From positions 3,320-67,319 of the forward strand of contig CALFZE010000048.1 in NCBI GenBank assembly GCA_937952285.1: a stretch of 64,000 nt of DNA, in the 5' to 3' direction. A model generated the notes under the pieces. The model saw only the letters and a list, made by a program, of their open reading frames with translations. It did no database searches and had not been told where the DNA came from. The stretch comes from an uncultured Bacteriovoracaceae bacterium (lineage in GTDB: Bacteria > Bdellovibrionota > UBA2428). A program made the position numbers and the translations under genes. Of this stretch, positions 4,647 to 51,571 are shown one piece after another. Within the stretch, counting starts at the first letter, position 1. Each line of letters opens with the position of its first letter.

Positions 4647-5450
4647 CTAGTCGACGACGTTTTCGCCGCCGTCGATCCGGATCGTGTTTCCGGTCATGAA
4701 ATCGAAGTGCGGCAAACAGAACGCCACGAGCGACTGGGCGACGTCATCGGGCGTCGTGAGGCGCTTCATCGGGTTACGGCCCTGGGCGACTTCGATCATC
4801 TTCTCGTTGCCCGGGATCTTGCGAAGCGCCGGGGTGTCGGTGACGCCGGCGAGCAGCGCGTTCGCCGTGACGCCGAGGGGCGCGAGTTCGAGCGCCAGCT
4901 GCCGGCAGTAGCTCTCGAGCGCGGCCTTGGCGGCACTCACCGCGCCGTAGCTCGTCCAGACCCGCGAAGAGCCGGCCGAGGTCATCGCGAAAATGCGGGC
5001 GCCGCGGCAAAAGAGTCCGGCGCGGGCGAGATCCTGGGTCCAGTAGATGAGCGAACTCGCCATGACGTCCAGGGTCATGTCGACTTGGGCTTTGGTCAGG
5101 GAATCTTCGGGCGTCGCGCCGACGAGCGGCTTGAGGGCGCCGAAGGCGAGGGAGTGCATGAGCACGCGAACGCGTCCGTTCGCCCGCTCCTTGAGCTGGG
5201 CGACAACTTCTTGGCGCTTGGCCTCGTCGGCGGCGTTCGCATTCACGAAGACGACCTCGCGTCCCATCGCTTTGAGGTCGGCCTGAAGGCTTTCGACGTG
5301 GGCCATGCCGGCTTTGCGGTCCAAATGGACGCCGAAGATGTTGAAACCGGCCTCCGCCAAGCGCCGGCAGGCGGCTTCGCCGAATCCGCTCGAAGCGCCA
5401 AGAACGAGAGCCCAATCACCTTTGAAGAATCCGTTGAATTCCTTCGACAT
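4647..5450 (-). CDS. SDR-family enoyl-[acyl-carrier-protein] reductase, FabL/FabI-like
   Basis: Start placed at internal ATG (MSKEFNGFFKGDWALVLGASSGFGEAACRRLAEAGFNIFGV), a glycine-rich NAD(P)-binding loop. Active site YGAVSAAK has Y-x6-K spacing, typical of FabI/FabL enoyl reductases rather than the classical SDR Y-x3-K. The upstream extension in the ORF track overlaps the fliD start on the other strand and lacks GC3 bias. Confidence 0.55.
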   Translation of the reverse strand: MSKEFNGFFKGDWALVLGASSGFGEAACRRLAEAGFNIFGVHLDRKAGMAHVESLQADLKAMGREVVFVNANAADEAKRQEVVAQLKERANGRVRVLMHSLAFGALKPLVGATPEDSLTKAQVDMTLDVMASSLIYWTQDLARAGLFCRGARIFAMTSAGSSRVWTSYGAVSAAKAALESYCRQLALELAPLGVTANALLAGVTDTPALRKIPGNEKMIEVAQGRNPMKRLTTPDDVAQSLVAFCLPHFDFMTGNTIRIDGGENVVD

Positions 5451-5547
5451 GGGCCCCTTTAAACACGCCCCGGATTTCACGTCAAAACACTGGCTGGAGA
5501 GGGCGCCTCCGAAACGAGAACATGGATGTCGGAGGGGTACGATCGCT

Positions 5548-6918: not shown

Positions 6919-6925
6919 TTAGGTC

Positions 6926-7321
6926 ATGAGTTACGGAGCGAAGTCCTACAAAAGCACGAGCATCCAGACGGCGACGCCGGAGCAGGTTCTTCTCATGCTC
7001 TACGAGGGGGCCATCAAGGCGACGAAGCTCGCCAAGCTCGCCATCGAGAAAAAGAACATGGCCGAGAAAGGCAAGCAGATCGGCAAGGTCCATGACATCC
7101 TCATGGAGCTTTCGAACACGCTCGATCACTCCAAGTCGCCCGACGTTTCGGGGCAGCTTTCCTCGCTTTACGACTTCTGTATCGCGCAGTTGTTCAAGGC
7201 GAACATGGAGAACGATGCGAACTCGCTCGATTCCGTCGTTAAGGTGCTGACGACCCTTTACGAAGGGTGGGTCTCGGCGGTTCAGGAAATCCGGAAGACG
7301 GCCAAGAAGGAGAAGACGTGA
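6926..7321 (+). CDS. fliS: Flagellar export chaperone FliS
   Basis: 131 aa, four-helix FliS-like sequence (ATPEQVLLMLYEGAIKATKLAK ... LYDFCIAQLFKANMEND ... LYEGW). Sits directly downstream of fliD. Confidence 0.8.
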   Translation: MSYGAKSYKSTSIQTATPEQVLLMLYEGAIKATKLAKLAIEKKNMAEKGKQIGKVHDILMELSNTLDHSKSPDVSGQLSSLYDFCIAQLFKANMENDANSLDSVVKVLTTLYEGWVSAVQEIRKTAKKEKT

Positions 7322-7662
7322 AGATCACCGTGGAAGCCCTCCTCAAGAAGCTCGGGCAGCTCGACCAACGCCTTCTGAACATCTGGGTTTCCGAGGACGC
7401 GGACCTCTCCGACGACGAGCGCTGGGAAATCTTCGCGGTTCTGCTCGAGAGCCGCGTCGAATTGCTCGCCGTGTTGCGTGACGCGGGTCACCGGCTGACG
7501 CCCGAGATTTGCCTGCCGCCGTGGCTCGATCGTCTGACTTCGCGCAAACGCGAAGTTCGCTTGCGTGAACTCAAGACGACGCTCGAAGAAAAGCGGTCGC
7601 GGGATCGCATTTCCGCGTATCGTGAAGTAGCCTCAGCTCCGGGGGAGTCTGAAAATACGTGA
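7318..7662 (+). CDS. Hypothetical small helical protein in the FliT position downstream of fliS
   Basis: GTG start overlaps the fliS stop (GTGA). About 114 aa, acidic and helical (DLSDDERWEIFAVLLESRVELLAVLRD). Position matches the fliD-fliS-fliT pattern only. No sequence-level FliT call is possible. Confidence 0.35.
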   Translation: MKITVEALLKKLGQLDQRLLNIWVSEDADLSDDERWEIFAVLLESRVELLAVLRDAGHRLTPEICLPPWLDRLTSRKREVRLRELKTTLEEKRSRDRISAYREVASAPGESENT

Positions 7663-8411
7663 GCTCGGTTCGAGATACTTTTGCCGAAAGATTCGAAGCT
7701 TCTCGCATCCTCTATAGGCATGGCGAGAAGCAGGAAGCCAAGGCGCTCCTGCGCCATCTCTGGGAAGCGCCCTACCGCAAACCGATCCACGAGTTTCGCG
7801 TCTTCTGCGCGCTCATGGAAGTCTGGTGCTTCGAGAATCCTCGCGCGGTCCTCGGGTTCCTCGAGAGCCTGATCCTCGGCGAGGGCGACCTGCAGGCGTT
7901 CTGGGCCCGTCGTTCCTTGGCCGAGCAGGCCTGCCTCTTCGAGTGGCACGGGCAGTTGGCCTTCGCCACGGGCGACGATTTTCTCGCGCTCGAAAGTCTC
8001 GCGCGCGCCGCCTCGCTCGGCCGCGACACGAGCCTGCTGTGGCGCTTGCTCGCGACCTTGCACGCCAATCACGGCGAGCTCGACCTCGCGGTCCGTTATT
8101 GCCGCCGTAGCCTGAATCTCTTCAAGCAACTCGAACTCGACATCCTCGGGACGCACGCCGACGCGCTCGGCTGGTTCTCGGGCGAGCATCCGCTCCGTTT
8201 CGAATCGGGCGTCGAGCCCTACATGAAGATCCTGTTGCTCGTCACTCGCCTGGCCAAGAGCCACCGCAACTTGCGGGCCGTGCGCGAGCTGCTCGTCGAG
8301 CTCATCCACTGCTTCCCCGACGAAGGGCGCTTGCACCGGATCCGGCTCATGCTCGAGCGGTCGATCGTCGAGTCGAGTCTCACGTCGACGGCGATCGAAG
8401 CGCCGCGCTAG
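7659..8411 (+). CDS. Hypothetical helical-repeat (TPR-like) protein
   Basis: GTG start overlaps the preceding stop. 250 aa, alpha-helical repeat composition, no catalytic motifs. Co-directional and translationally coupled with the fliD-fliS unit. Confidence 0.4.
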   Translation: MSSVRDTFAERFEASRILYRHGEKQEAKALLRHLWEAPYRKPIHEFRVFCALMEVWCFENPRAVLGFLESLILGEGDLQAFWARRSLAEQACLFEWHGQLAFATGDDFLALESLARAASLGRDTSLLWRLLATLHANHGELDLAVRYCRRSLNLFKQLELDILGTHADALGWFSGEHPLRFESGVEPYMKILLLVTRLAKSHRNLRAVRELLVELIHCFPDEGRLHRIRLMLERSIVESSLTSTAIEAPR

Positions 8412-8461: not shown

Positions 8462-10369
8462 TTGCGCCGAAACGGCGGAAGGGAGGAAGTGCCTTTGCCG
8501 TTTGGTCCGCGCGACATTCGACGTCTGACGCAAAGCCTCGCGCCGGGCCTCCTCGCGTTCGCGCTGTCGGCTTGCGGCGACCTCTCGCTCAAGACGACGC
8601 TCGACGCCGCCGTTCGCAAACAAAGCGGCGTCGATTCCCGAAGCCTCGCCTTGTGGGCGCGCAGCCCCGTCGTGGATGGCGGCGATCCGGGCTTGCACGC
8701 CGGCTCGAGCCTCGAATCGGTGCCGCGCACGGACCTCGACTTCGCGATGCTCGCCACCACGAAGTCCCTTCCGCAGTCGACGCTCGTGAGCGTCTACGAA
8801 ACGTCTTTCCTGTCGCTCGACGCGGACCGCCCGATCTTCTTCGATTGGGCGGGCACGCGCATTCCGTGGTCGAACCCGGCCTTCCAGGTCTTCATGGCGC
8901 TCCACCACGGGGCGAAGGCTGCCACGCACGCGCTTGGGCTGCTCGACGACTACCAGCCCGCCTCGGTCAAGATCCTCGCCGCCGAGCCGGGCGACGCCTA
9001 CTCGACGCACTACAGTCCTTCGAAGAAGACGATCACTTTCTACAAGAACGAGACGGGCCCGGCCTTCAACCCGGTCGACGAGGCCGACGCGACCTACCAC
9101 GAGTACGGTCACGTCGTTCAGCATGTCCTTTCGCCGGAAGCCGTGGCGGCTCCGACCCTCTTGAACTACCAGTTCGACGCGCTCCAGGAAGGACTCTCGG
9201 ACTTCGCGGCCGCGGTCGTCGCGCGCGATGACCGAACGAACGGCTACTTGAACTCGAATACCCGGCAGCTCGCGCAGGCTTCGGCCGTCTTCGACCCGGC
9301 CCAGTACACGCGCTCCGTCCGCAACGACTTCGCCTTTCCCCAGGCTTGGGTGGGGGGGCTTCTGAGCTGCCAGGAGACCGACGCCGATTGCGGCGGCAAC
9401 GGGAATATCCACCAGGACGGGCGCGTCGTCGCCGGCGCGCTGAACGACATTCGCAAGTACCTCTCGGGTTTCGAGGTCGTCGAGAAGAACTGCAGCGGCG
9501 CGAACTGCTCACTCAAGCTGGGGTCGGGCGCCTTGGGCGAGACCAAAGCGTGGGACGAAGTTTACGTTCTCGCGCACGAGGCGTTCCGGCTCATGAGCGA
9601 AACCAAGACGCTCTACTACTACGCGAAGACGCTCGTCGGCATCTGCTCGGCGCCGGCCTTCGCGTGGTGCACGACGGAGGTCAAGACCGGCATCAAACGC
9701 ATCCTCGTCGGCCGGGGGCTCTACGTGCAGGACGACGGCCTCTCGGCCGGCCCCTACGCCTGGGGCGAGTTCGGCGATGGCAACGCCTTCACCACGAGCA
9801 CGGGCGCGACCGGTCACCTCCGCACGCACACGGCGGGCGGCTGGTTCCCGCTCGCCGGCGAGGGTTACGCGAACTCCAACGGCGTCTTGGGACGTTGCGA
9901 AGCCGTTTTCCTCTACCCGAACTTCGACAACGTGAGCGACCTGCGCGCGCTCGGGGACCGCGTGCGTCTGGCCGGCATCTCGGTCGAGATCACGGCGATC
10001 TCGGGGTTCCGCAATCTCACGGCGCCTTCGACGGGCGCCGTCGTCGAGGACGTGACCTCGTCGGCGCGCGAGGAAAAGTTCTTGGGTTGGATGGATCCGG
10101 CCGACACGGTGACGGAGCTCATCTCGGATCCGGCCTCGCGTTGGTACAAGAACATCGGCGGCTCGAGCCTCTCGGCGTTCCCGAGCCTGTCGAACGCGTA
10201 TTCGGAGCTCGCTTGGCTCGCGCGCGCGCCGACGGCCGCGGGCGCCGCGGCGGGATCGGTGACCTACCGCCTGACGTTGAGAATCCAGAACCGCGAAAGC
10301 TACGAACCTTTTTCGGTGTCCTTTACGCAGAACTACGAAGTCTCCGCGAACGAAAGTTTCTGCGACTAA
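8462..10369 (+). CDS. Secreted thermolysin-like (gluzincin, HEXXH...E) zinc metalloprotease, lipoprotein
   Basis: Lipobox LLAFALSAC. HEYGHVVQH zinc-binding HEXXH, with QEGLSDF about 30 aa downstream resembling thermolysin's NEAISD third-ligand Glu motif. An alternative TTG start at 8498 has a better-spaced GGAGG. Confidence 0.6.
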   Translation: MRRNGGREEVPLPFGPRDIRRLTQSLAPGLLAFALSACGDLSLKTTLDAAVRKQSGVDSRSLALWARSPVVDGGDPGLHAGSSLESVPRTDLDFAMLATTKSLPQSTLVSVYETSFLSLDADRPIFFDWAGTRIPWSNPAFQVFMALHHGAKAATHALGLLDDYQPASVKILAAEPGDAYSTHYSPSKKTITFYKNETGPAFNPVDEADATYHEYGHVVQHVLSPEAVAAPTLLNYQFDALQEGLSDFAAAVVARDDRTNGYLNSNTRQLAQASAVFDPAQYTRSVRNDFAFPQAWVGGLLSCQETDADCGGNGNIHQDGRVVAGALNDIRKYLSGFEVVEKNCSGANCSLKLGSGALGETKAWDEVYVLAHEAFRLMSETKTLYYYAKTLVGICSAPAFAWCTTEVKTGIKRILVGRGLYVQDDGLSAGPYAWGEFGDGNAFTTSTGATGHLRTHTAGGWFPLAGEGYANSNGVLGRCEAVFLYPNFDNVSDLRALGDRVRLAGISVEITAISGFRNLTAPSTGAVVEDVTSSAREEKFLGWMDPADTVTELISDPASRWYKNIGGSSLSAFPSLSNAYSELAWLARAPTAAGAAAGSVTYRLTLRIQNRESYEPFSVSFTQNYEVSANESFCD

Positions 10370-10551: not shown

Positions 10552-10743
10552 ATGAAGCTTTTCAAAATCAAGAACTCCAAGCGCGGCCAAACCTCGGTCG
10601 AGTACATCCTGATCATCGCCGTCGTCGTCGGCGTCATCATGATGTTCGGTGACCAACTGAACAGCGGCATCAAGAAGGTCACGCAGAGCCTCTTCCAAGG
10701 CGCGGACCGCAACGTGTCCAGCCTCACCGATCGCAAGAACTAA
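10552..10743 (+). CDS. flp: Flp-family type IVb pilin
   Basis: 63 aa, MKLFKIKNSKRG/QTSVEYILIIAVVVGVIMMF. Has the G-xxxxEY prepilin peptidase motif followed by a hydrophobic segment. First gene of a tad operon. Confidence 0.75.
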   Translation: MKLFKIKNSKRGQTSVEYILIIAVVVGVIMMFGDQLNSGIKKVTQSLFQGADRNVSSLTDRKN

Positions 10744-10794
10744 GGAACGCGGGATTCGCTCGCGACCGGTCTTGGCAAGCGGAAGGGAGGCGTC

Positions 10795-11001
10795 ATGAAC
10801 TCGTTTCGTACGGCGCGCCCTTCTTCTCGCAAGCGGGGGCAGGCGCTTCTCGAGTACGTCCTGCTCCTCGGCCTCATCTCGACGATGGCGGCCGCGATGA
10901 CGCGTTTCTTCCTGAACGACTTCTTCGCGGAAGGATTGCGCGAGCTGCCGAGCGCCGTCTCTCCGTGTCTCTCGCAAGGGGCCGGAAAATGCGGTCCCTA
11001 G
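10795..11001 (+). CDS. flp: Flp-family pilin, second paralogue
   Basis: 68 aa, ...SSRKRG/QALLEYVLLLGLISTMAAAM. GGAAGGGAGG RBS. C-terminus has a Cys...Cys pair (CLSQGAGKC). Confidence 0.65.
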   Translation: MNSFRTARPSSRKRGQALLEYVLLLGLISTMAAAMTRFFLNDFFAEGLRELPSAVSPCLSQGAGKCGP

Positions 11002-11279
11002 GTGCCCCACGCGAACGCGCGCCCCGCCGTCGTCGCTTCGGATCCCGCTCGGGCCAAGCCATGGCCGAGTACATCCTGTTACTCGCGGTCGTGATGGGAG
11101 TCGTTTCCGTCTTTCGCGTCGTCTTCCTGCAGAACCTTGCGCCGCGACTCACGACGCGCTTCGAGAGCATGGCGACCTTCGAGGCCAAAGGCCTGGGCGA
11201 GGGCTCCGCGCCGCTGCTCGACAGCTACTACACGGGCTACGGAGGGGCACATGCCGACGCGCAAGTCATCGTCAAATAG
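10989..11279 (+). CDS. Flp-like pilin, third paralogue (atypically long leader)
   Basis: ...FGSRSG/QAMAEYILLLAVVMGVVSVF contains the G-xxxxEY motif. Start is uncertain and overlaps the previous gene by about 13 nt. Confidence 0.5.
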   Translation: MRSLGAPRERAPRRRRFGSRSGQAMAEYILLLAVVMGVVSVFRVVFLQNLAPRLTTRFESMATFEAKGLGEGSAPLLDSYYTGYGGAHADAQVIVK

Positions 11280-11934
11280 CGCCGCGGCCGCGCGCAAGAC
11301 GTCCCGCTCCGGCCAGACCTTGGTCGAGTTCATCTTCGTCTCGATTCTTTTCGTGTTCATGGTCGCCATCTCATTCAACGCCGTTTTGGCGATGAGTCTC
11401 CATCAGTACATGTCCTTCGCGGCGTTCATGTCGGCCCGTGCCTACCAGGCCTCGGCGAGCGACAAAGCCGTCCAAGTCGCTTCGGCGCGCGGCACCCTCT
11501 CACTCTACCTGCCGGGCCGCACGCCCCAGAACGTCACCGACGTCCCCTACGAGATCACCTTTCCGGTCTTCAGCAAGCCCGGTACTATCCTCGTCACGAA
11601 CGTCGTGCTGCCGCCGGGCGACGCGAGCCTGGACTACGGGCCGGGCGCGACGCTCGAGACCCAGGCCGGAAGCGCGCCCGCGATCGTCATCGAGTACGTC
11701 GTGCCGATCGCGAACCTTCCGCTCGGCGACGAGCTGGCGCAGATCAGCCAGATCAAGCTGCGCTCGCGCGCCTACTTGGGCCGCGAGGTTTCGCAGTCGG
11801 AGTGCCGGCGCTTTTTCACGAGCTTCTTCAACTACTACACCTTCGAGAACTCCGGTCTCGGCGGCAGCCCCATGCGGGCCAACGAAAGCTACGTGCGCTC
11901 GTTGGCCCCTAACATGGAGGACAACGGATGTTGA
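11251..11934 (+). CDS. TadE-like pseudopilin
   Basis: N-terminus ...RSGQTLVEFIFVSILFVFMVAISF is a TadE-type processed N-terminus (G/Q..VEF plus TM helix). Sits in the tad operon. Confidence 0.55.
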   Translation: MPTRKSSSNSAAAARKTSRSGQTLVEFIFVSILFVFMVAISFNAVLAMSLHQYMSFAAFMSARAYQASASDKAVQVASARGTLSLYLPGRTPQNVTDVPYEITFPVFSKPGTILVTNVVLPPGDASLDYGPGATLETQAGSAPAIVIEYVVPIANLPLGDELAQISQIKLRSRAYLGREVSQSECRRFFTSFFNYYTFENSGLGGSPMRANESYVRSLAPNMEDNGC

Positions 11935-12386
11935 GTCGTCGCTCGGTTTCGAGCCGTCGCGGTCAGGCCGTTGTCGAGCTGTTGCCGGCCGTCCTGATCT
12001 TTCTCCTCGTGACGACGGCGGCCATGACCTATTTCCGCACGCTCCGCCACGCGACGCTTCGCCAGGAGGTCGTGCGCAACCTTGCCTTCGCGAAGATCGC
12101 GAACTCGGGCACGCTCACGACGCCGACCGAGCAGAGCGGCGGCGAGCTCCCCGTCCAGTACGCGGCGTCTGGGGAGCGGAGCGTGGCCGGCATCCAGGCC
12201 AGCGCGAACGCCTTCGTGTCGAACGAGAACGTTTGCTTTCGCATCGTTCCGCACGAGCCGACGACGGAAGTCTCCCTTTCGGGGGTCTACGGTATGGGGG
12301 ACCTCGTCAAAGTTCCGTTCTCGACCTCGAGCGTGGTGTACCGCGGCGCTTTGGGACAGCGCGTGGCGGCGGCCTGCGGACCTTAG
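11928..12386 (+). CDS. TadE/TadF-like pseudopilin
   Basis: MLSRRSVSSRRGQAVVELLPAVLIFLLVTTAAMTYF. GGAGG RBS 7 nt upstream. 7-nt overlap with the preceding gene. Confidence 0.55.
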   Translation: MLSRRSVSSRRGQAVVELLPAVLIFLLVTTAAMTYFRTLRHATLRQEVVRNLAFAKIANSGTLTTPTEQSGGELPVQYAASGERSVAGIQASANAFVSNENVCFRIVPHEPTTEVSLSGVYGMGDLVKVPFSTSSVVYRGALGQRVAAACGP

Positions 12387-12450
12387 CGCGCAGCCTCAAG
12401 GGTCCCGCCCGGATGGCCGATAGGAATGAGAGGAGCGTAAGGCCGACTTT

Positions 12451-13365
12451 ATGAACCAGTCCAAAGCCTTCGGTATCAGTCTCGTCTTCGCGGGCCTCGC
12501 CATGCTTCTCGTTTTCCTTTACGTGGACTCCGAGAAGAAGCAGATCCGCGATGAGTTCGGCGAAGAAGTGACCGTCGTGGTCGCGCGCGAAGACATCAAC
12601 GAGATGCAAGAGATCTCGACCAAAGTTCTCGAGACGAAGCGCGTCCCGAAACGCTTCGTGCAACCGGGCGTCCAGTTCGACCCGAACGTCTACGAAGGTA
12701 CGATCGCGGCCGCGCCGTTCAAGGCGGGCGAGCAAGTCCCGCTTTCCAAGGTGCTGCTGAAGGGCGGCGAAACCGGTCTCGCGACCCAAGTCGCCGTGTC
12801 CAAGCGCGGGATCGCGATTCCGATCTCGGACACGACGGGCGTGAACCGCCTCGTGCGTCCGGGCGACCGCGTGGACCTCATCGCGAACGTGACCTACGAA
12901 GACGCGGCCGGCAAGCGCGGCTCCGAGATCAAGACGATCCTGCAGGACGTGCAGATCATCGCCGTCGGAGAGATGATCCAGAACAACATTCCGCAGGTCT
13001 TCGAGGAAGATCCCATCTCCGGCGGCCGTCGCGCCAAGAGCCTGCGCGGCTCGCGCGGCTTCGCGACGATCACCGTCGAGGTCACGCCCCTCGAGGCCCA
13101 GTCGCTCATCTACCTCGTGTCGTCGGGCACCGACATCTTTTCGACTTTGCGCAATCCGGTCGACCGCGTCGTCCAGCCGGTGCCCACGACGACCGTCGAC
13201 GAAGTGCTCGGTCAGAACTCGAAGAAGGCCGAGATCGAGCGCCGCATGAGAATCCCGGCGGCGGCTCCCGTCGTCGCGGCGCCTCCGCCTCCGCCCCGCA
13301 TGATCTTCAATCCGATGACCGGAACGATGGTTCCGGCGATGGGAGGCGGCATTGGCCCGAAGTGA
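12451..13365 (+). CDS. cpaB: Flp pilus assembly protein CpaB/RcpC
   Basis: N-terminal TM anchor, then a SAF-like and CpaB-like body (VVVAREDINEMQEISTKVLETKRVP...VRPGDRVDLIANV). Position is between the pseudopilins and the secretin. Confidence 0.7.
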   Translation: MNQSKAFGISLVFAGLAMLLVFLYVDSEKKQIRDEFGEEVTVVVAREDINEMQEISTKVLETKRVPKRFVQPGVQFDPNVYEGTIAAAPFKAGEQVPLSKVLLKGGETGLATQVAVSKRGIAIPISDTTGVNRLVRPGDRVDLIANVTYEDAAGKRGSEIKTILQDVQIIAVGEMIQNNIPQVFEEDPISGGRRAKSLRGSRGFATITVEVTPLEAQSLIYLVSSGTDIFSTLRNPVDRVVQPVPTTTVDEVLGQNSKKAEIERRMRIPAAAPVVAAPPPPPRMIFNPMTGTMVPAMGGGIGPK

Positions 13366-15112
13366 ATTGTTTTCCAAGGGCGTGAAGGGATTCCTCGGCG
13401 CGGCGCTTTGGCTGTCGTTCGCCGTGGTTTCCTCTTCGCGGGCGCAGGACGGCGGGCGTGATCCGGCGTCGGCGTCGCGTCCGCCCTCGCAAAAGCCCGC
13501 TTTGCTCGACGGCAAGGAAACCGATCTGCTCGGCGCGATCCCGAACACGACTTTCCGCGAAATCGAATCCGTGCGCCGCGATGACGCCGTTCTGCGTCCG
13601 AAGCACGGCTTTCGCGACATCTTCATGACCAAGGGCAAGACGACGGTGCTGGACGTGCACACGATCCCGCCCGGCAAGCCTTGCCCGGAGCGTCTCGACC
13701 AGCTCCCCATCCGCGTTTCCCAGGTCGGGCTCATCGTGAACTCGGTGCGCGACGGCAGCTCGAACGGCTGTCGGGTCACGGCGAGCGACCAGGTCGGGTC
13801 GACCCAGATCCTTTGGTACGACAACCGCGCCCAGGCGGCGGATGCCCCGCCGGTCCTCGGCGAGCTTCTGCGTGTCTACCGCATCACCGTGACGACGGAC
13901 GATATCCTCACGATGATGCAGGAGCTCCAAGGCCTCATCGGCGATATCGAAGGCATCGAGATTCGTATCGTCGGCACGCAAGTCGTCGTCGACGGCAAGA
14001 TCCTCGTGCCCTCCGAGCTCCGTCGGCTCGAGACGGTCCTCTCGGTTCCGCGTTACCAGGGCAAGGTCTTGAGCCTCGCCGAGATCTCGCCGGTTTCGCA
14101 GAAGCTCCTCGCGCGCAAGATGGAGGAATCCATCGCGGGCGGCAAGGATCGGCCCAAGGAGATCACGGTTCGCGTCGTGAACGGCCGCTTCTTCCTGGAA
14201 GGCCTCGTCGACAAGCAGGGCGACCGCCAGGCGGCCGAGGTCATCTGTAAGAGTTTTCTCCAAGAGAAGTACTACCTCTCCAAGGGGCCCAAGCCTCCGG
14301 AAGGTATCGGGTCGGATTGCGTGCAGATGGTGCGTATCCGCGCCCAGCAGCCTTCCGAGCCGGATCCCATCGTCTCCGTGCGCGTGGACTTCGTGAAGCT
14401 CAACCGCGAGTTCATGAAGAACTTCGAGTTCAGCTGGGCGCCGACCATCGGCGCTTCGGCCGAAGCTGCCTACAGCACGGACCTCGGGCGCTTCGTGGGC
14501 AGCTTCACCGCCACGCTCTCGAGCCTCTTTCCCAAACTCCATTCCGCGAGCTCGAACGGCCACGCCCGCATCCTGAAGTCGGCGCACCTCCTCGTGCGCG
14601 ACGGCGCGGACGCGCAGCGGGGCGACGGCGCGCCGCCCGAAGCCAAGATCAGCGAAGTCATCCAGATCCCGTACACCCTCCGCGACGCGCAGGGGAACGA
14701 GCAGCTGCAGTTCCAGGAAGTCCGCACGCAGGTCTCCCTGCGCGTGAAATCCGTGGCGGGTTCCGACAAGCTCAACCTCGACGTCCTCGCGACCCAGGCC
14801 GAGCTCCGCGGAAGCGGCGGCGGCGCGGGTCAGCAGTCGGGCACCGTATCGAACGAGGTCAAGACGAGTCTCGTCGTGGGCGACGGCGAAAGCGCCGCGC
14901 TCGGCGGGCTCGTGTCGGAGCGCAAGCAGATCTCGAACGGCCGCAAGCCTTCCGCCGAGGCCGGGAACACTTTCTCGCTCTTCTCGCTCGACAAGAAGCA
15001 CGACTACTTGGACAGCAAGGAGCAGTTCATCGTTTTCATCACCCCCGAGAAAATTCGCTCCCCTTCGGAAGGCACGGAACGCCTCAAGCGCAAGTTCCGT
15101 CTGAGGAAGTAA
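13352..15112 (+). CDS. cpaC: Flp pilus secretin CpaC/RcpA
   Basis: Signal peptide. C-terminal secretin domain (TSLVVGDGESAALGGLVSERKQ...EQFIVFITPEKI) typical of the T2SS/T3SS secretin family. Confidence 0.75.
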   Translation: MARSELFSKGVKGFLGAALWLSFAVVSSSRAQDGGRDPASASRPPSQKPALLDGKETDLLGAIPNTTFREIESVRRDDAVLRPKHGFRDIFMTKGKTTVLDVHTIPPGKPCPERLDQLPIRVSQVGLIVNSVRDGSSNGCRVTASDQVGSTQILWYDNRAQAADAPPVLGELLRVYRITVTTDDILTMMQELQGLIGDIEGIEIRIVGTQVVVDGKILVPSELRRLETVLSVPRYQGKVLSLAEISPVSQKLLARKMEESIAGGKDRPKEITVRVVNGRFFLEGLVDKQGDRQAAEVICKSFLQEKYYLSKGPKPPEGIGSDCVQMVRIRAQQPSEPDPIVSVRVDFVKLNREFMKNFEFSWAPTIGASAEAAYSTDLGRFVGSFTATLSSLFPKLHSASSNGHARILKSAHLLVRDGADAQRGDGAPPEAKISEVIQIPYTLRDAQGNEQLQFQEVRTQVSLRVKSVAGSDKLNLDVLATQAELRGSGGGAGQQSGTVSNEVKTSLVVGDGESAALGGLVSERKQISNGRKPSAEAGNTFSLFSLDKKHDYLDSKEQFIVFITPEKIRSPSEGTERLKRKFRLRK

Positions 15113-15116
15113 CGGC

Positions 15117-17357
15117 ATGAGCCAACAACCTCCGCTTCGAGCCGTTCCGCCCCCCGCCGCCGGATCGCCGTCGCCGACGGCCGCCGCGGCCGCGCCCCAA
15201 GGCCACGTCATCGCGGTCGTGGGCGGGAAGGGCGGCGTCGGCAAGTCCGTCTTCGCGGGCAACTTCGCGCTCGCGATGGCGGCCGACGCCAAGAACGGCC
15301 CCGCGCTCATCGACATGGATCCGCAGGGCTCCGGCGACCTGAGCCTGATCTTGGGCGTGAAGCAGGTCAAAGGCTACGGCGACGACTTGCTGGCGGGCAA
15401 ACTCCGCGACAGCGCCGCGCTCCGCAGCTTCCTGACCCAGGTCCCGGCGGGTCCGGCGGGCGGTCCCGTCCTGAACGTTCTCCAAATGAGCGCGAACCCC
15501 GACAAGCTCCTCTCCGTCGAAGAAGACAAGATGGATCTCGCGCTCAAGCTCGTGCGCCGGACTTACCCGGTGACGATCATCGACTGCGGCAGCCGTCTCG
15601 AGGGGCCCATCCTCAAGGCGATCGATCTCGCGACGATGATCCTCGTCGTGACGAACCCCGAGATCCTCGTCCTCAACCAGACCCGCCGCGTGCTCGATCG
15701 GCTACAGACGCTGCTCGTGCCGCCGGACATGGTGAAGGTCGTCCTGAACAAGATGCCGACGGGCGGCACGCCCTATACGCCGCAGTTCATCGAACAGAAC
15801 CTCAAGCGCCAAGTCGTCGCGGTGATCCCCGAGGACGCGGCTTCCGCGCAGGCGGCGCTCTCCAAGGGCGTGCCCATGGTGGCCTCGGCGCCGGGATCGC
15901 CCGCGACCAAGGCGCTCTACGGCTTGAGCCGGGTCCTGCTCGAGAAGCGGGTGCTCGATACCCTCGCCCAGGTTCAGCGCGCGCCCCGGCCCGTGCCGGC
16001 CGCCGATGCGAAGCCGGCCGCGGCGGGCGGCGCCCCCGAGCCGGGCGGCCAGTCGAAAATGGGCAAGGAGCCGCGCGACCCGCGGAGCATCCTGAAGATC
16101 CGTATCCAGGCCCAGCTCGTCGAGCGCATGGACCTCAAGCGCGAACAACTCGACCGCAACCTCGACGCCGAGAAACGCGCCGAGCTCCGCGCGAAGGCCC
16201 TCAAGATCGTCACCGACATCCTGAACGTCGAGGACCATCCGTGGAAAGCCCGCGAGGAGATGGCCAAGCTCACGAAAGAAATCCTGGACGAAGCGCTCGT
16301 GCTCGGTCCCCTGGAGGACCTGCTCGCCGACGACGACGTCAAGGAAATCATGGTGAACCGCGCCGACCTGATCTTCATCGAAAAAGGCGGGCGCATCCAG
16401 AAGTCGCCCGTCACCTTCTCGAGCAACGTTCAGCTCATGTCGGTCATCGAGCGTATCGTGAACCCCCTCGGCCGTCGCATCGACGAGAAGACGCCCTACG
16501 TCGACGCGCGTCTCGTGGACGGCAGCCGGGTGCACGCAATTATCCCGCCGCTCGCCCTCGACGGCCCCATGCTCACGATCCGGAAGTTCCCCAAGAAACG
16601 CCTGGGACCCGAGGATCTCATCAAGTTCGGAACCTTCACGCCCGAGATGTCGGACTTCCTGCGCGCCTGCATCGAGGCCCGCCTGAACGTCCTGATCAGC
16701 GGCGGTACGGGTTCGGGTAAAACGACGCTCCTCAACGTGCTGTCGAGCTTCATTCCCGCCACCGAGCGCATCCTGACCGTCGAAGATGCGGCCGAGTTGC
16801 AACTCGTGCAGGAACACGTCGGACGCCTCGAAACGCGGCCCGCCAACATCGAAGGCACGGGCGCCGTGACGATTCGCGACCTCGTCCGCCAAACGCTCCG
16901 GATGCGCCCCGACCGCATCGTCATCGGGGAAGTCCGCGCCGGCGAGGCGCTCGACATGCTCCAGGCTATGAACACGGGTCACGACGGCTCGATGGCCACG
17001 GTCCACTCGAACAACCCGCGCGACGCCGTCGCGCGTCTCGAGACCCTCGTCATGATGGCCGGCATGGACTTGCCCGCGAAGGCGATCCGCGAGCAGATCT
17101 CGAACGCCGTCCACCTCATCGTGCAGCAGTCGCGCCTTTCGGACGGTTCGCGCCGGGTCACCCACGTGACCGAGGTCTCCGGCATGCAAGGCGAAGTCGT
17201 CACGATGCAGGACATCTTCGTCTTCCGGCAGGACGGCCTCGACGAGAAGCGCAAGGTGAAGGGCAAACACGTCGCGACGGGCTTCATCCCCAAGTTCATC
17301 GACAAGATCGAGGCGACGGGCATCAAGCTCCCGCGCGGTCTCTTTAAGGCGGCTTGA
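15117..17357 (+). CDS. Fused CpaE(TadZ)-like ParA/MinD ATPase and CpaF(TadA) secretion ATPase
   Basis: N-terminus has the deviant Walker A VIAVVGGKGGVGKS (ParA/MinD fold, CpaE-like), then an Ala/Pro-rich linker. C-terminal about 450 aa is CpaF/TadA-like (LISGGTGSGKTTLLNVLSSF Walker A, TVEDAAELQL, NTGHDGSMATVHSN). One 746-aa ORF with no internal stop. Confidence 0.75.
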   Translation: MSQQPPLRAVPPPAAGSPSPTAAAAAPQGHVIAVVGGKGGVGKSVFAGNFALAMAADAKNGPALIDMDPQGSGDLSLILGVKQVKGYGDDLLAGKLRDSAALRSFLTQVPAGPAGGPVLNVLQMSANPDKLLSVEEDKMDLALKLVRRTYPVTIIDCGSRLEGPILKAIDLATMILVVTNPEILVLNQTRRVLDRLQTLLVPPDMVKVVLNKMPTGGTPYTPQFIEQNLKRQVVAVIPEDAASAQAALSKGVPMVASAPGSPATKALYGLSRVLLEKRVLDTLAQVQRAPRPVPAADAKPAAAGGAPEPGGQSKMGKEPRDPRSILKIRIQAQLVERMDLKREQLDRNLDAEKRAELRAKALKIVTDILNVEDHPWKAREEMAKLTKEILDEALVLGPLEDLLADDDVKEIMVNRADLIFIEKGGRIQKSPVTFSSNVQLMSVIERIVNPLGRRIDEKTPYVDARLVDGSRVHAIIPPLALDGPMLTIRKFPKKRLGPEDLIKFGTFTPEMSDFLRACIEARLNVLISGGTGSGKTTLLNVLSSFIPATERILTVEDAAELQLVQEHVGRLETRPANIEGTGAVTIRDLVRQTLRMRPDRIVIGEVRAGEALDMLQAMNTGHDGSMATVHSNNPRDAVARLETLVMMAGMDLPAKAIREQISNAVHLIVQQSRLSDGSRRVTHVTEVSGMQGEVVTMQDIFVFRQDGLDEKRKVKGKHVATGFIPKFIDKIEATGIKLPRGLFKAA

Positions 17358-17365
17358 GGTCGGCG

Positions 17366-18454
17366 ATGGACGGCGTGTTGGGCGTTACCCTCGGAGCCGG
17401 ATTCCTGGGTTTCCTGGGCGTCTACATGACCTTCGACTATTGGTACGACCTTTTCTGGGTCCGCGGCATGAAGCAGATCCACGAGGCCACCGTCGCGCTT
17501 AGCGAGGACCTCTTCATCGAGGGCGACGCCGACGCCGTTTGGGCCAAGCAGATCCGCCTCTCCTCGGGCTTCGCGCTCGTGAACTTCGTCGGGGTCCTCG
17601 TGTCGAAGGATCTCTTCCTCATGGGACCGCTCCTCGTCGTGGGCATGCTCCTCTTCCAATTCATGAACTCGAAGGGAGTCGAGGACTTCATCGCGGCGAA
17701 TCCGGGTTCCGCCGTCGAGCAGCAGGTTCGGGGCCTCAAGCTCCGCGCCGCCCACATGTTCGGCAACGTTATCCTGAGCATTCTCCTTCTCATGCTTCCG
17801 ACCCTCGCGCGTCTGCCGCCGATCGTGCTCTCGATCGTGACGTCGATCATGCTCTTTTACTTCGCGTGGCGCCTGCCCTTCCTTTGGTACAGCTTCATGA
17901 TCCGGCCCGCGCGGATCAAGAAATTCTCGACCCAGATGGTCGACGCGCTCACGCTCATGTCGAATGGCATGAAGTCGGGCCTGAACGTTCCGCAGACCCT
18001 CCAGATCGTCGTGGACGAGATGCCGAACCCGATCAGCCAAGAGTTCCGTCTCATCCTGACCGAGAACCGCATCGGTTTGACTTTCGAAAAGGCCTTCGAG
18101 AACCTCGGCCGCCGCATCCCTTCCGAGGACGTGAGTATGTTCGTGACGAGCGTCAACATCCTGCGCGAAACGGGCGGCAACATCTCGGAGACTTTCGACA
18201 CGATCGCCCAGACGATCCGCGAACGGATGAAGCTGCAGAGCAAGATCGGCGCGATGGTCGCGCAGGGCATGATGTCGGCCATTATCGTGGGCGCGCTGCC
18301 CTGGGGCTTGGGCGTGATGCTCTACCTGATCGATCCCGTGCGTATGACGCCGCTCTTCACGACGCCGCTCGGCTGGGTGATCCTGCTCGCGATCCTCATC
18401 CTCGAGGCCATCGGCTTCGTCGTGATTCTGAAGATCGTGAAAATCCGCGTTTAG
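17366..18454 (+). CDS. Tad platform inner-membrane protein (TadB/TadC, T2SS-F family)
   Basis: Polytopic membrane protein with a single T2SSF-like cytoplasmic domain (QMVDALTLMSNGMKSGLNVPQTLQIVVDEMPNPISQEFRLI). Follows the ATPase gene. Only one such gene is present before the strand switch. Confidence 0.65.
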   Translation: MDGVLGVTLGAGFLGFLGVYMTFDYWYDLFWVRGMKQIHEATVALSEDLFIEGDADAVWAKQIRLSSGFALVNFVGVLVSKDLFLMGPLLVVGMLLFQFMNSKGVEDFIAANPGSAVEQQVRGLKLRAAHMFGNVILSILLLMLPTLARLPPIVLSIVTSIMLFYFAWRLPFLWYSFMIRPARIKKFSTQMVDALTLMSNGMKSGLNVPQTLQIVVDEMPNPISQEFRLILTENRIGLTFEKAFENLGRRIPSEDVSMFVTSVNILRETGGNISETFDTIAQTIRERMKLQSKIGAMVAQGMMSAIIVGALPWGLGVMLYLIDPVRMTPLFTTPLGWVILLAILILEAIGFVVILKIVKIRV

Positions 18455-18457
18455 CGA

Positions 18458-18940
18458 TTAGTGAGTCGTCATCCGGCCTTTGATGACGCGGATGAGCGAT
18501 CCGATGGCCGGAATTCGCTCGTAAACGAAGTCTCCCATGTCGAAGTAGTCGCGCTGGTAGACAACCTTGCCGTTGGCCATGCGGAAAACGGAGTTGCCGG
18601 GCACGCCGTATTCCCGGCCGCCGTTGAGGCGAGGGTGGGCAAGATGCATCGTCCAAACGAGAACGCGGCGATCGCCTTGCACGATCTCGGGTTCGAAGTC
18701 CCAGCGAATCGAGGTCACTCCCTCGTACTGGTACGCGTAGTGCGCTCGGATCGCCGCGGGGCCCTTGAGCGAGACGACGGGGTCCTGGAAGACGGCGTCC
18801 TCGGCGTAGAACTCCTCGACGAGCTCCATCGTATCTTTGTTGAGTCGTTCGAAGAATTCTCTCGGGGTGAGGGCCGGGGTGGACTTCATGGGAGCCAAAC
18901 TTAGCATGGCGGCGGAAAGGCAGACTAAGAAACGTTTCAT
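18458..18940 (-). CDS. SnoaL/NTF2-like fold protein, secreted
   Basis: Start taken at internal ATG (MKRFLVCLSAAMLSLAPMKSTPA signal peptide). Body resembles the ketosteroid-isomerase/SnoaL-like fold. The long N-terminal extension in the ORF track is Arg/Pro-rich and implausible. Confidence 0.45.
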   Translation of the reverse strand: MKRFLVCLSAAMLSLAPMKSTPALTPREFFERLNKDTMELVEEFYAEDAVFQDPVVSLKGPAAIRAHYAYQYEGVTSIRWDFEPEIVQGDRRVLVWTMHLAHPRLNGGREYGVPGNSVFRMANGKVVYQRDYFDMGDFVYERIPAIGSLIRVIKGRMTTH

Positions 18941-19740
18941 CGGTGACCTCTTTTGGTTGATTTGGGGGGCCAGGGGAAGAAGAGACTCGTCCGGCGTTGG
19001 TAGTCCGCGTAGTCGGATCGGCTCTCGAGCGAGCGCGCTTCGGTCGGGCGAATGCCGGTGACCTTGAAGAGAAACGCCATCATGACGACGGGGCCGAGAA
19101 GCGTGAGCGCAAAGGTCAGTGCGGCGTTCTCGGCGCCGGCGACGAGGGCCCCGGCCGCCCAAATCACGTAGGTCCACCAATGAAGCCATTCGAAGAAGTA
19201 GTTGGGATGGCGGGAGTAACGCCAAAGCCCACGGTCGCACGTTTTCCCCCGGTTCGAAGGATCCGAAGCAAAGGCTTTGAGTTGGCGGTCTGCCAGGGCC
19301 TCGCCGAGAATCGAGCCCAGTCCCCACAGCAGTCCGACTCCGAAGAAGGGATTGCCCTCGATCGTGGCCCCCTTAAGGCCGCCTTCCATCGGGACCAGGA
19401 GAAGCCAAATGAGCAGAGCCTGGACTTGGTAGAAGACAAAAAACTGGCGGCTACCCCAACCGCGTTGGCGGAGGGAAGCGTAACGACGATCTTCGGCTTT
19501 GGCTTTCAGGACTCGGGTCGAGAGAAGATAGAGGCCCAAGCGCAGAGACCAAAGCACGGGAACGAGGGCGGCCACCCAAGCCCTTCGGGAATCCAGGCCG
19601 AGGACGATCCAGGGCACCGCCACGGCGAAACTCAGTGACCAAGCGGCGTCGACCGCGTTCGCGTTGCGGCTACGTTGCTGCCGCCACCACAAGAAAAACA
19701 TCGCGATCGCGGCCGCGACGTAGAGCGCGCAAAGAGTCAT
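18937..19740 (-). CDS. DUF1295 / steroid-5-alpha-reductase-like membrane methyltransferase family protein
   Basis: Multi-TM protein with the conserved YSRHPNYFFEWLHWW motif of the DUF1295/ICMT/PEMT superfamily. 4-nt overlap with the downstream SnoaL-like gene. Confidence 0.55.
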   Translation of the reverse strand: MTLCALYVAAAIAMFFLWWRQQRSRNANAVDAAWSLSFAVAVPWIVLGLDSRRAWVAALVPVLWSLRLGLYLLSTRVLKAKAEDRRYASLRQRGWGSRQFFVFYQVQALLIWLLLVPMEGGLKGATIEGNPFFGVGLLWGLGSILGEALADRQLKAFASDPSNRGKTCDRGLWRYSRHPNYFFEWLHWWTYVIWAAGALVAGAENAALTFALTLLGPVVMMAFLFKVTGIRPTEARSLESRSDYADYQRRTSLFFPWPPKSTKRGHR

Positions 19741-19899: not shown

Positions 19900-21507
19900 A
19901 TGCGTTTTTCCTTGAAGGGACTCGGACGAGTCATGGGTTGTGCGGCCACGCTTTGGGCGGGTGCCAGCTTCGGCGGCGTCAATGTGAACAACGGGAACTT
20001 CTACATCGCCTACACGGACTTCCTCGTGCAGACGCCCGGGCTCAATATCGACATCACGCGCACCTACAACAGCCGCTCGAACTACGTGCGCGGCTTCTTC
20101 GGGGTGGGCTGGTCGAGCGAGATCGAAAGCTACCTTAGCTTCGAGAAAGACGTCGTTTCGCTCTCGGAAGGCGGCGGCGGCAACATCGTCCGCTTCGAAC
20201 CCGTCAAGGGCAAGCCCGGCACTTGGGCGAACGGGGTCTTCGGCAACCAGACGCTGACCAAGGAAAAGACCGGGGGCTACGTCCTCGAGACGGCCACGGC
20301 CAAGGTCATGAGCTTCTCCGACAAGGGCCGGCTGCTGCGCATCGCGGACCGCAACAAGAACGTGATCGAGCTCGTCTACAAGGGCGATCGCATCGACATG
20401 ATCAAGGATAACCTCAACAACCAGATCAAAGTGACCTGGAAGGAGAACGTCGGCCGCCATCCGCGGATCGAAACCCTCCAGATGGGACCGAAGAAGGCTC
20501 GTTACGAGTACTCGAACGTGGGGAACCTCACGAAGGCGGCGGGTGCGGACGGCATCCAGTACGTCTACGCCTACGACGACGAGCACAACATGACCAAGAT
20601 CTCCTACGCGAACGGCTCGTTCAAGGAGATGGGCTACAACAAGGGCCGCGATTGGGTCACGAGCTTCCGCGACCAGGACGGCACGCGCACTTCCTACGAC
20701 TACTTCTCGGACACGCTCGACCCCGAGAACAAGTTCGGCACGACGGTGACGCGCGTCCCCGCCGGTTCGACGAACAAGGAAATCGCCCGCTTCTGGTACG
20801 AGTTCCGCAAGCGCGCCGACGGCAGTCGTTACAACTACAAGGCGGTCACCGAGATGCGCGACGTCGTGACGGAAACGCTCTTCACGGAATGCTGCGGCAC
20901 CCCGCTCGTCATCACCCAGTGGAAGTCCGTCGCGCCGAAGGCCGGCGAGACGACCCTCGCCTGGACGACGCCCAAGGCCGACAAGCGCTCGACCAAGTTC
21001 GAGTACTTCGAGGACGGCCTGCTCCGTCGCAAGACGGCGGCGGACGGCACGATCACGGCCCTGACCTACGATACGAAGCACAAGAAAGTCGCGAGCGTGG
21101 ATCGTGGCGGTCGCAAGGTCGAGTACAACTACGATCCGCGCGGTAACCTCGCGTGGGCCTTCGACGTGAACGACAAGCGTCGCCTCGACCTGACCTACGA
21201 CGTGAAGGGTCGCATCACGGTCGTCCAAGAAAAGCGTCCGACGATGGCCGGGCCGACCAAGATCTTCTTCCGCTACGACGCGATGGGGCGCCCCGTCGAG
21301 ATCAAGGAAACGCCCACGAACGCGAAGGAATCGATCATTCGCTTCGCGTACGGCTCCGAGGGCGAAGTCGTGGGCGTGCTCAACGCCCAGGGCCGCGCGG
21401 TCGCTTCGCAAGTCGAAGTCCAGAGCGCCCAACGCGTGGCCGCGACCTTCCAAAATCTTCTGCAGATCGTTCAACCGACGGGCGTGACGCTCACGCCGGA
21501 GGGCTAA
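19900..21507 (+). CDS. YD-repeat (RHS-family) secreted protein
   Basis: Start at internal ATG with GGAGG 8 nt upstream. Signal peptide. N-terminal GNFYIAYTDFLVQTPGLNIDITRTYNSRS block is typical of RHS N-regions. Multiple YD-type repeats (YDPRGNL, LTYDVKGRI, YDAMGRPVE). No recognisable C-terminal toxin domain. Confidence 0.6.
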   Translation: MRFSLKGLGRVMGCAATLWAGASFGGVNVNNGNFYIAYTDFLVQTPGLNIDITRTYNSRSNYVRGFFGVGWSSEIESYLSFEKDVVSLSEGGGGNIVRFEPVKGKPGTWANGVFGNQTLTKEKTGGYVLETATAKVMSFSDKGRLLRIADRNKNVIELVYKGDRIDMIKDNLNNQIKVTWKENVGRHPRIETLQMGPKKARYEYSNVGNLTKAAGADGIQYVYAYDDEHNMTKISYANGSFKEMGYNKGRDWVTSFRDQDGTRTSYDYFSDTLDPENKFGTTVTRVPAGSTNKEIARFWYEFRKRADGSRYNYKAVTEMRDVVTETLFTECCGTPLVITQWKSVAPKAGETTLAWTTPKADKRSTKFEYFEDGLLRRKTAADGTITALTYDTKHKKVASVDRGGRKVEYNYDPRGNLAWAFDVNDKRRLDLTYDVKGRITVVQEKRPTMAGPTKIFFRYDAMGRPVEIKETPTNAKESIIRFAYGSEGEVVGVLNAQGRAVASQVEVQSAQRVAATFQNLLQIVQPTGVTLTPEG

Positions 21508-21508
21508 G

Positions 21509-21817
21509 ATGAAATTCCGTGGATTCCGTTTCGTCACGATCGCTTCGCTGCTCCTTTCGAGCTCCGCGTTCGCGAACATGATGATGTCGCCGGGGATGGT
21601 CGCGCCGGGCATGATGGCGCCCACCGCGAACTACGCGAACGCGCAGTTGCAGCCGGTGCAGGGCCCCCCGGGGGCCGGCGTCGTGCAACAGCCGAGCGAA
21701 GGCGAGGTTGCGGCGAACGCGCCTCAACAGGCGATGGGTTGCGGCGCGGGCCACTACGGTCGCATCAAAGATGGCTTCACGATCGAGGAATCGCGCAGCG
21801 GTTCGCACATGTTCTAA
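21509..21817 (+). CDS. Small secreted Met/Pro/Gly-rich protein (hypothetical)
   Basis: Signal peptide MKFRGFRFVTIASLLLSSSAFA. 1 nt after the stop of the YD-repeat gene. Confidence 0.4.
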   Translation: MKFRGFRFVTIASLLLSSSAFANMMMSPGMVAPGMMAPTANYANAQLQPVQGPPGAGVVQQPSEGEVAANAPQQAMGCGAGHYGRIKDGFTIEESRSGSHMF

Positions 21818-25253: not shown

Positions 25254-25254
25254 C

Positions 25255-34726: not shown

Positions 34727-34793
34727 GTCGTAAGGCGCCTTTTTGGCGCGCCTCGGCTACCCTCGCGGATCCCCCCGTTCTACACTGGAGAGC

Positions 34794-35498: not shown

Positions 35499-35501
35499 AC
35501 G

Positions 35502-35936: not shown

Positions 35937-35937
35937 G

Positions 35938-51403: not shown

Positions 51404-51571
51404 GCTTCGTTTGGGTATTCCGGGGATCGCCGCGCGCCTTCGAAAAAGTCTAACGGCAGGCGTTCCGGCGGCGTTCGCTGACATAAGTGCCTGAATTTTG
51501 ACACAGTCTTTGACGAGGCGAGTTAAGGTGTGGTAAATCTCCCCCTGGCTTTAGGCAAGGGAGTGCTTCGC

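Follow-up and report, generated by a model that had tools for sequence, protein, structure and literature searches.

The 64,000-nucleotide stretch analysed here (the window), part of contig CALFZE010000048.1 from an uncultured bacterium of the Bdellovibrionota, carries at positions 10552-18454 a Tad/Flp pilus locus that is very probably the main tad (type IVc/Flp pilus) operon of this organism and the orthologue of tad locus 1 of Bdellovibrio bacteriovorus. At this locus only the ATPase half of TadZ/CpaE is fused to a complete CpaF/TadA motor, and class-III-type signal peptides are carried by five of the encoded proteins, namely three Flp pilins and two minor pilins. The arrangement is not new: earlier work on B. 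bacteriovorus had described, and in part dissected, the TadZA fusion, the single tadB and the absence of TadV. The increment is comparative, in that the arrangement, including an RHS gene at seven loci, spans families beyond Bdellovibrio as well as a high-GC uncultured lineage.

The open reading frames (ORFs) of the locus were profiled with Pfam and NCBIfam, the fused ATPase was matched by sequence to PDB structures, and nine ORFs, all on the plus strand, were verified within 10552-18454. These ORFs occupy the high-GC3 frame (third-position GC 0.78-0.89) and overlap or are tightly spaced in an operon structure. The gene content and order given in a preliminary description of this DNA (three flp genes, tadE- and tadF-like genes, rcpC/cpaB, rcpA/cpaC, the fused ATPase gene and tadB) were borne out by these ORFs and their domain matches, and the presence of a Flp major pilin, the CpaF/TadA ATPase, RcpC/CpaB and the RcpA/CpaC secretin places the locus among Tad/Flp (type IVc) pilus systems. 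Between 10300 and 18700, a sigma-70 promoter scan gave no promoter-like site and a terminator scan gave terminator-like sites only at the background rate.

Conservation of the locus among Bdellovibrionota

The fusion arrangement is widespread in Bdellovibrionota. Species-representative genomes were scanned by CpaF-domain patterns only, which yields a sample rather than a census and did not return the window's own species, and matches were re-checked at the ORF level before fusions were counted. Among the matches listed, single-ORF TadZ-TadA fusions were found at L006 (Bdellovibrio sp. HCB288), L003 (Pseudobdellovibrionaceae), L066 (Halobacteriovorax), L057 (Bacteriovoracaceae), L004, L005 and L007. 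By tblastn, the Bdellovibrionota order is flp genes, a tadE-like gene, rcpC, rcpA, tadZA and tadB, with one platform gene after tadZA; rcpC-rcpA-tadZA-tadB is found in L006, L003, L066, L004 and L007, and the short or truncated contigs L005 and L057 show the parts that they cover. The L006 genes lie in the same order as those of the window and encode proteins 39, 32, 50 and 49% identical to its RcpC, RcpA, TadZA and TadB, respectively. Two closer relatives, L083 (78% identity) and L084 (68%), also carry rcpC-rcpA-tadZA-tadB, and the upstream flp and minor-pilin genes are present in L083 but not in L084. The same core order thus recurs across related genomes.

Tesseur, Denise, Santin and Laloux described the Tad system of B. 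bacteriovorus HD100 in a preprint of July 2026 (10.64898/2026.07.08.737194). In this strain, tad locus 1 (bd0110-bd0119) comprises TadB (bd0110), TadZA (bd0111), RcpA (bd0112), RcpC (bd0113), flp1/flp2 and tadE/F (10.64898/2026.07.08.737194; PMC5430801). The introduction of the preprint credits the fusion to an earlier paper, and Avidan et al. (2017) found TAD loci to be syntenic among Bdellovibrio and like organisms and TadV to be absent from Bdellovibrio genomes (PMC5430801). The fusion, the lone platform gene and the lack of a dedicated peptidase, which the preliminary description had singled out, are therefore all on record for Bdellovibrio. Since the Bdellovibrionota loci share one gene order, we regard the window locus as the orthologue of the Bdellovibrio locus.

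This assignment is strengthened by the genes downstream of tadB. A 535-residue protein encoded at 19900..21507 on the plus strand has RHS/YD repeats and a DUF6531 domain (RHS_repeat 1.5e-18, DUF6531 3.7e-13; Pfam), and a gene for a homologue comes straight after tadB in L003, L005, L006, L007 and L066 (E 1e-37 to 1e-49) as well as in L083 and L084. It is followed on the same strand by a 102-residue ORF (21509..21817) with a signal-peptide-like N-terminus and then a low-complexity, P/G/Q/A-rich sequence; in L006, L083 and L084 the RHS gene is likewise succeeded by an ORF of 94-115 residues, and the window protein is 32% identical to its equivalents in the last two. The 'hit' locus of B. bacteriovorus, which encodes the RHS protein Bd0109 and Bd0108, a secreted protein of 101 residues, is co-transcribed with bd0110/bd0111. 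The two window proteins are probably the hit-locus counterparts of Bd0109 and Bd0108, the smaller one being a candidate Bd0108 equivalent by its position, size and character only, and a role in prey attachment or invasion is plausible.

In the window, an insertion of two minus-strand genes, encoding a SnoaL-like protein (18458-18943) and a DUF1295 protein (18937-19740) by Pfam, separates tadB from the RHS gene, and the RHS gene adjoins tadB in L006, L066 and L084. In the DUF1295 region there is an indel of about 103 nt between the window and an NCBI contig (L001) of a metagenome-assembled genome (MAG); a contig from ENA (L002) matches the window there.

Several points weigh against the orthology. 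The comparison with HD100 runs through Bdellovibrio sp. HCB288, at 50% identity, and through synteny; the placement of MAG GCA_002343545.1, which encodes the same fusion protein (see below), in Bdellovibrionota comes from the names of its homologues only; a GC content of 63% is far from that of cultured Bdellovibrio; the TadE and TadF labels have weak or no support from hidden Markov models (HMMs); and tadC, pilD/tadV, tadG and romR were sought in the 64-kb window only.

Beyond Bdellovibrionota, the matches listed include apparent single-ORF fusions in Omnitrophota (L017, L042), WOR-3 (L032) and Eremiobacterota (L020). These are apparently independent, and each is either a further fusion or a gene-calling read-through; at L020 the reading frame stays open across tadB as well, and the locus has two platform genes. 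A single-ORF fusion is also present at L008, from an uncultured bacterium, but with two platform genes. The conserved loci, the invariant catalytic residues of the TadZ part (see below) and the similar fusions in Omnitrophota and WOR-3 favour viewing TadZA as a trait of the lineage and not as a peculiarity of HD100. Fusions suggested by tblastn with query residues 28-746 in Chloroflexota, Bacillota, Acidobacteriota and Actinomycetota were rejected, because the ORFs are separate adjacent cpaE and cpaF genes that tblastn had joined. At least about 70 loci in these four phyla have a separate cpaE directly upstream of cpaF, and the separate CpaE is an ATPase protein of 390-460 residues, often with a CheY-like receiver, that has its Walker A motif at residues 144-206. 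In Chloroflexota and Bacillota, many CpaE proteins that stand alone, as at L009, L016, L041, L050 and L077, have an N-terminal domain with strong scores (80-100 bits) for a canonical CheY-type receiver, not merely an 'atypical' one.

RcpC, the secretin and a single platform gene

RcpC is the periplasmic alignment protein of the machine and RcpA its outer-membrane secretin. RcpC/CpaB (304 residues, 12451..13365, plus strand) matches PF16976 RcpC (1e-18, above the cut-off), SAF (1e-6) and TIGR03177 pilus_cpaB (3e-38, 131 bits against a cut-off of 71), and the RcpA/CpaC secretin (586 residues, 13352..15112, plus strand) matches PF00263 above the cut-off (6e-11, residues 400-566) and is 30-32% identical to the product of the gene before tadZA in L003-L007, L057 and L066. 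The TadB-type inner-membrane platform protein (366 residues, 17354..18454, plus strand) has one T2SSF domain (PF00482, 1.7e-20, residues 199-324); its gene may start instead at ATG 17366, giving 362 residues. The C-terminal 200-260 or so residues are 46-58% identical to the product of the lone gene after tadZA in L003-L007 and L066.

Neither tblastn nor Pfam detected a T2SSF/TadB paralogue of this gene within the 64-kb window. The earlier claim of a single platform gene therefore stands for the locus and the window, but the genome does not necessarily hold only one. The preliminary description had also listed TadV/CpaA, TadD and TadG as lacking from the window, and Pfam scans agreed: no A24 peptidase (TadV/CpaA) was present among about 60 window ORFs, the tad ORFs included, and no TadD, TadG or second T2SSF protein among about 50 further window ORFs. 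A romR gene was likewise not seen within the window. One candidate for a TadD pilotin, a 250-residue TPR-like protein encoded at 7659-8411, was rejected since it has neither a signal peptide nor a lipobox.

A lone platform gene could mean that in this lineage a TadB homodimer makes up the whole platform and that the pilus is a generic adhesion device of a bacterium that is not a predator. Every Bdellovibrionota locus examined has one T2SSF gene, the TadB of the window has an N-terminus 70 residues longer than that of Bdellovibrio, with extra hydrophobic segments, and the source of the DNA is bioreactor sludge. In B. bacteriovorus HD100, however, tadC is encoded at a separate locus and TadC localizes with the secretin, and the Tad system is indispensable to prey attachment and invasion (10.64898/2026.07.08.737194); moreover, absence from a 64-kb window is uninformative for the rest of the genome, and the conserved, hit-locus-like RHS gene ties the locus to the Bdellovibrio arrangement. 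We therefore consider a one-platform, non-predatory pilus unlikely beside a Bdellovibrio-like predation device with a remote tadC.

A TadZ ATPase domain fused to the TadA motor

The tadZA gene (15117..17357, plus strand) is a single ORF of 746 residues. Pfam places CbiA (2.8e-13) and AAA_31 (2.5e-10) at residues 30-249 and T2SSE (5.8e-61) at residues 397-671, and searches of PDB align archaeal MinD with residues 31-274 (1e-15) and Caulobacter CpaF with residues 294-737 (2e-129). The TadA half scores 334 bits on the TadA family model TIGR03819, slightly below its equivalog cut-off of 373. We delimit a disordered N-terminus (residues 1-26), a TadZ/MinD-type ATPase domain with the Walker A motif GKGGVGKS (residues 30-285, nt 15204-15971, plus strand), an Ala/Pro-rich disordered linker of about 35 residues (residues ~286-321, nt 15972-16079, plus strand) and a full CpaF/TadA (residues 322-746, nt 16080-17354, plus strand). 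Both domains fold in an AlphaFold2 (AF2) model, in which the confidence score pLDDT is 50 or higher except at residues 1-26, at residues 293-315 in the linker and in three short loops.

The preliminary description had read this ORF as an in-frame fusion of CpaE to CpaF, and most of that reading holds: the ORF has no stop between the two halves, both motifs quoted for it are present, and HMMs detect a ParA-like domain in the N-terminal part, where CbiA and AAA_31 match. What is fused, however, is the ATPase half of CpaE/TadZ. The Walker A motif, KGGVGKS, fits the pattern K/RGGxGx[S/T] and lies at residue 38, after a disordered tail of 26 residues, and the receiver (atypical receiver domain, ARD) that precedes it in CpaE is absent.

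Homologues of TadZA were clustered from a search of 5.8 billion proteins, and the best 120 clusters were inspected. In 116 of these, at 54-80% identity, both Walker A motifs lie in one protein, the first being the deviant motif GKGG[VIL]GK[ST] and the CpaF motif following about 490 residues downstream. The fused homologues are about 713-1017 residues long, all but one of them 713-755, and the named members among the top clusters belong to Bdellovibrionales, Bdellovibrionota or Deltaproteobacteria. In an alignment of 21 diverse members, the positions of the MinD catalytic residues (K38, K43, D66, D68 and D156) are invariant and variation is confined to the linker. Two proteins have other architectures. 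P0104 (1017 residues) carries ParA, T2SSE and T2SSF domains together, through a further fusion or a gene-calling read-through, and P0004, a 1158-residue NCBI protein scoring 1240 bits to TadZA, has no ParA Walker A motif and contains other domains (PF16796, PF13604, etc.).

The N-terminal domain might instead be an independently recruited MinD/ParA paralogue, making the protein a 'MinD-TadA' that may not be TadZ-like in function. Its best NCBIfam match is archaeal MinD (TIGR01969, 89 bits against 61 for the CpaE-homologue model), the closest solved structures found by sequence search are archaeal MinDs, the solved TadZ structure of E. rectale has no sequence match to it even at E = 1, it carries no receiver domain, and it has the full MinD Walker A KGGVGKS where many free-standing CpaE proteins have KGGxGTT or KGGxGCS. 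These scores do not discriminate, since the CpaE proteins from eight loci, all free-standing, also score best on MinD models (59-111 bits) and the equivalent domain of Bdellovibrio sp. scores best on the CpaE-homologue model, which indicates that likeness to MinD is a property of the whole TadZ family. The P-loop lysine (GK[ST]) is retained in the fused family; among free-standing CpaE proteins, many have G[TCA][TS], although some also have GK[ST]. Because the domain sits exactly where cpaE would, after the secretin gene and before cpaF, it is read most economically as the ATPase half of TadZ, fused to the motor, and separate recruitment of a MinD appears very unlikely.

That a frameshift or a lost stop merged neighbouring cpaE and cpaF genes has next to no likelihood, even though cpaE lies directly upstream of cpaF in most phyla, where one error could imitate a fusion, and although the junction is GC-rich and of low complexity, because the fusion is conserved: the identical 746-residue protein is on record in NCBI, MGnify, Logan and ENA, the two contigs that were read (DDRA01000040.1 of the NCBI MAG GCA_002343545.1 and an ENA bioreactor-sludge metagenome contig) encode the same ORF, 116 of the top 120 clusters, drawn from many samples, are single proteins with both domains, a receiver of about 140 residues, which a merged cpaE would carry, is missing from the N-terminal part, and in B. 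bacteriovorus the fused product has been both detected and tagged (10.64898/2026.07.08.737194; PMC5430801). Of the two conditions that had been named as refuting the fusion, a frameshift or stop at the junction and the lack of a ParA-like domain, neither holds.

Pilins and minor pilins

All five pilin-like proteins of the operon carry the motif [KR][RS]G/Q-x3-E[YFL], the slash marking the processing site, followed by one hydrophobic helix. Flp1 (63 residues, 10552..10743, plus strand) matches Class_IIIsignal (PF04021) above the cut-off at 30.9 bits and Flp1_like at 29.8 bits; its N-terminus reads MKLFKIKNSKRG/QTSVEY, in which the motif RG/QTSVEY was read directly, and its transmembrane (TM) helix spans residues 15-33. 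The flp1 start has a good Shine-Dalgarno (SD) sequence (agggggaattt ATG), and homologues occupy the same slot in L004, L057 and L066. Flp2 (68 residues, 10795..11001, plus strand, SRKRG/QALLEY) matches Class_IIIsignal more weakly than Flp1 (E = 2e-3) and has homologues by tblastn in L003 and L004. It ends in PCLSQGAGKCGP, which contains a Cys-x7-Cys pair; the pair described earlier is thus present at the C-terminus, but with a spacing of seven residues rather than eight, and its likening to the D-region disulfide of type IVa pilins is speculative. A C-terminal Cys pair is also found in the second pilins of L057 and L066 but not in those of L003 and L004.

Flp3, a larger Flp-like prepilin with an Arg-rich leader (10989..11279, plus strand, GSRSG/QAMAEY), has no Pfam or NCBIfam family match and is recognized by its G/Q-x3-EY motif, its TM helix and a match to flp1 at E = 1e-4. 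It has 96 residues with a leader of 22 from ATG 10989 and 104 residues with a leader of 30 from GTG 10965, the ATG having the better SD context; the unusually long 30-residue leader described before is therefore possible from the GTG, but the better start gives 22. The 5' end of flp3 overlaps the 3' end of flp2. A third pilin of about 100 residues with an intact G/Q site is kept in L003, L004, L057 and L066. A start at MAEY, as chosen by public gene callers, would remove the leader and make Flp3 a 'trimmed' Flp in the style of Bdellovibrio flp2, and was rejected because of the in-frame RSG/Q site, the SD sequence before ATG 10989 and the homologues with full leaders.

The TadE-like minor pilin (227 residues, 11251..11934, plus strand, RSG/QTLVEF) matches PF07811 TadE below the cut-off (E = 0.017), has a TM helix at residues 24-42 and probably starts at ATG 11251; homologues occupy the equivalent position in L003 and L004. 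The TadF-like minor pilin (152 residues, 11928..12386, plus strand, RRG/QAVVEL) has no Pfam or NCBIfam family match and is named from its class-III-type N-terminus, its TM helix (residues 15-33) and its position, and a gene comparable to it follows tadE in L003.

Surrounding genes

Directly upstream of flp1, positions 8462-10369 encode a 635-residue protein with a lipoprotein-like N-terminus (LLAFALSAC) and the zinc-protease motif HEYGH (HExxH), with no Pfam match and no homologue in the related loci compared; in L083 the slot upstream of the flp genes holds a different large protein (Laminin_G_3). Just upstream of these, fliD and fliS are followed by a 114-residue ORF and the 250-residue cytoplasmic TPR-like protein mentioned above (5305-8411). 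TPR proteins near tad genes have been noted in Bdellovibrio (10.64898/2026.07.08.737194). Elsewhere in the window are a PrkA-type serine kinase and a TPR/winged-helix (Trans_reg_C) regulator (54574-56862 and 51530-53431), a TolQRAB-like cluster (34743-38369), an MlaE/ABC cluster (24492-27463) and genes for citrate synthase, fumarase and GlmS.

Proposed mode of action

By analogy with characterized systems, cleavage of the prepilins at G/Q would fall to a peptidase whose gene lies away from the locus and that is shared with another type IV system, probably a type IVa PilD; HD100 has no TadV, and its type IVa peptidase PilD processes Flp1 (10.64898/2026.07.08.737194). The CpaF part would act as a hexameric motor for pilus extension and retraction through TadB, together with a TadC encoded elsewhere. 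The tethered TadZ and the linker may dock this motor to a polar landmark, a role taken in Bdellovibrio by the polar hub RomR, which is bound by TadZ and the linker (10.64898/2026.07.08.737194), so that the machine would be built at one pole. The earlier proposal that the fusion couples localization to the motor agrees, on this analogy, with the experiments on the B. bacteriovorus orthologue (10.64898/2026.07.08.737194), and the sequence diversity added here should be useful for structure-function work on the RomR-binding linker.

Since the TadZ moiety retains every catalytic residue of MinD (its signature and P-loop lysines, the switch Asp residues and Walker B), it might also be an active, ATP-cycling and dimerizing switch on each subunit of the CpaF hexamer that gates or times the motor, possibly with a single TadB and with the RHS and small secreted proteins as integral parts. 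We regard this as a speculative and rather unlikely extension. If true, it would fit the TadZA dynamics reported in Bdellovibrio, which are sub-second and pole-to-pole; in HD100 the protein, though dynamic, shows a bias to the invasive pole (10.64898/2026.07.08.737194).

Comparison with known systems

Canonical Tad/Cpa systems (Aggregatibacter tadZABCDEFG with rcpCAB and flp-tadV; Caulobacter cpaA-F) share with the window the G/xxxxEY Flp pilins, the TadE/F minor pilins, RcpC/CpaB, the secretin, the CpaF/TadA motor and a TadB-type platform protein. In contrast to the window, canonical TadZ/CpaE stands alone and carries a receiver-like domain at its N-terminus, and the canonical loci have two adjacent platform genes, a dedicated TadV/CpaA and usually a TadD pilotin and TadG, none of which is present in the window. 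The archaeal MinDs (1HYQ, 1G3Q) resemble the TadZA N-terminal domain in fold and in the complete deviant Walker A motif, and the TadZA family shows no variation in Walker B or in the switch Asp residues. However, TadZA has no MinC/MinE context and is encoded in a pilus operon, and its N-terminal domain continues into the linker and CpaF where MinD ends in a membrane-targeting helix.

The Kil system of Myxococcus xanthus is a Tad-derived machine of a predatory 'delta-proteobacterium', to which Seef et al. (2021) placed the Bdellovibrionales systems as related (PMC8460266). Like the window locus, it has a motor ATPase with an extra N-terminal domain and lacks TadD, TadG and RcpB, but KilF is fused to an FHA domain rather than to a ParA/MinD domain, the genes lie in two clusters that include a prepilin peptidase, unlike those of the window, and Kil assembles at sites of prey contact and not at a pole (PMC8460266).

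The closest counterpart is tad locus 1 of B. bacteriovorus. The window differs from it in a GC content of 63% and a TadZA about 50% identical to a Bdellovibrio TadZA, in an Ala/Pro-rich linker unrelated in sequence to the Bdellovibrio linker, in full leaders on all three Flp pilins where Bdellovibrio flp2 is 'trimmed' to MxxEY, in the longer N-terminus of TadB and in the two unrelated genes between tadB and the RHS gene; RomR, tadC and PilD, known in B. bacteriovorus, are not visible in the window. The two nevertheless share the gene order, a TadZ region without the ARD, as described for HD100 (10.64898/2026.07.08.737194), that is joined by a flexible linker to TadA and has a Walker A motif of the form K/RGGxGx[S/T], one tadB and no TadV at the locus, and, after tadB, an RHS protein followed by a small secreted protein (Bd0109/Bd0108).

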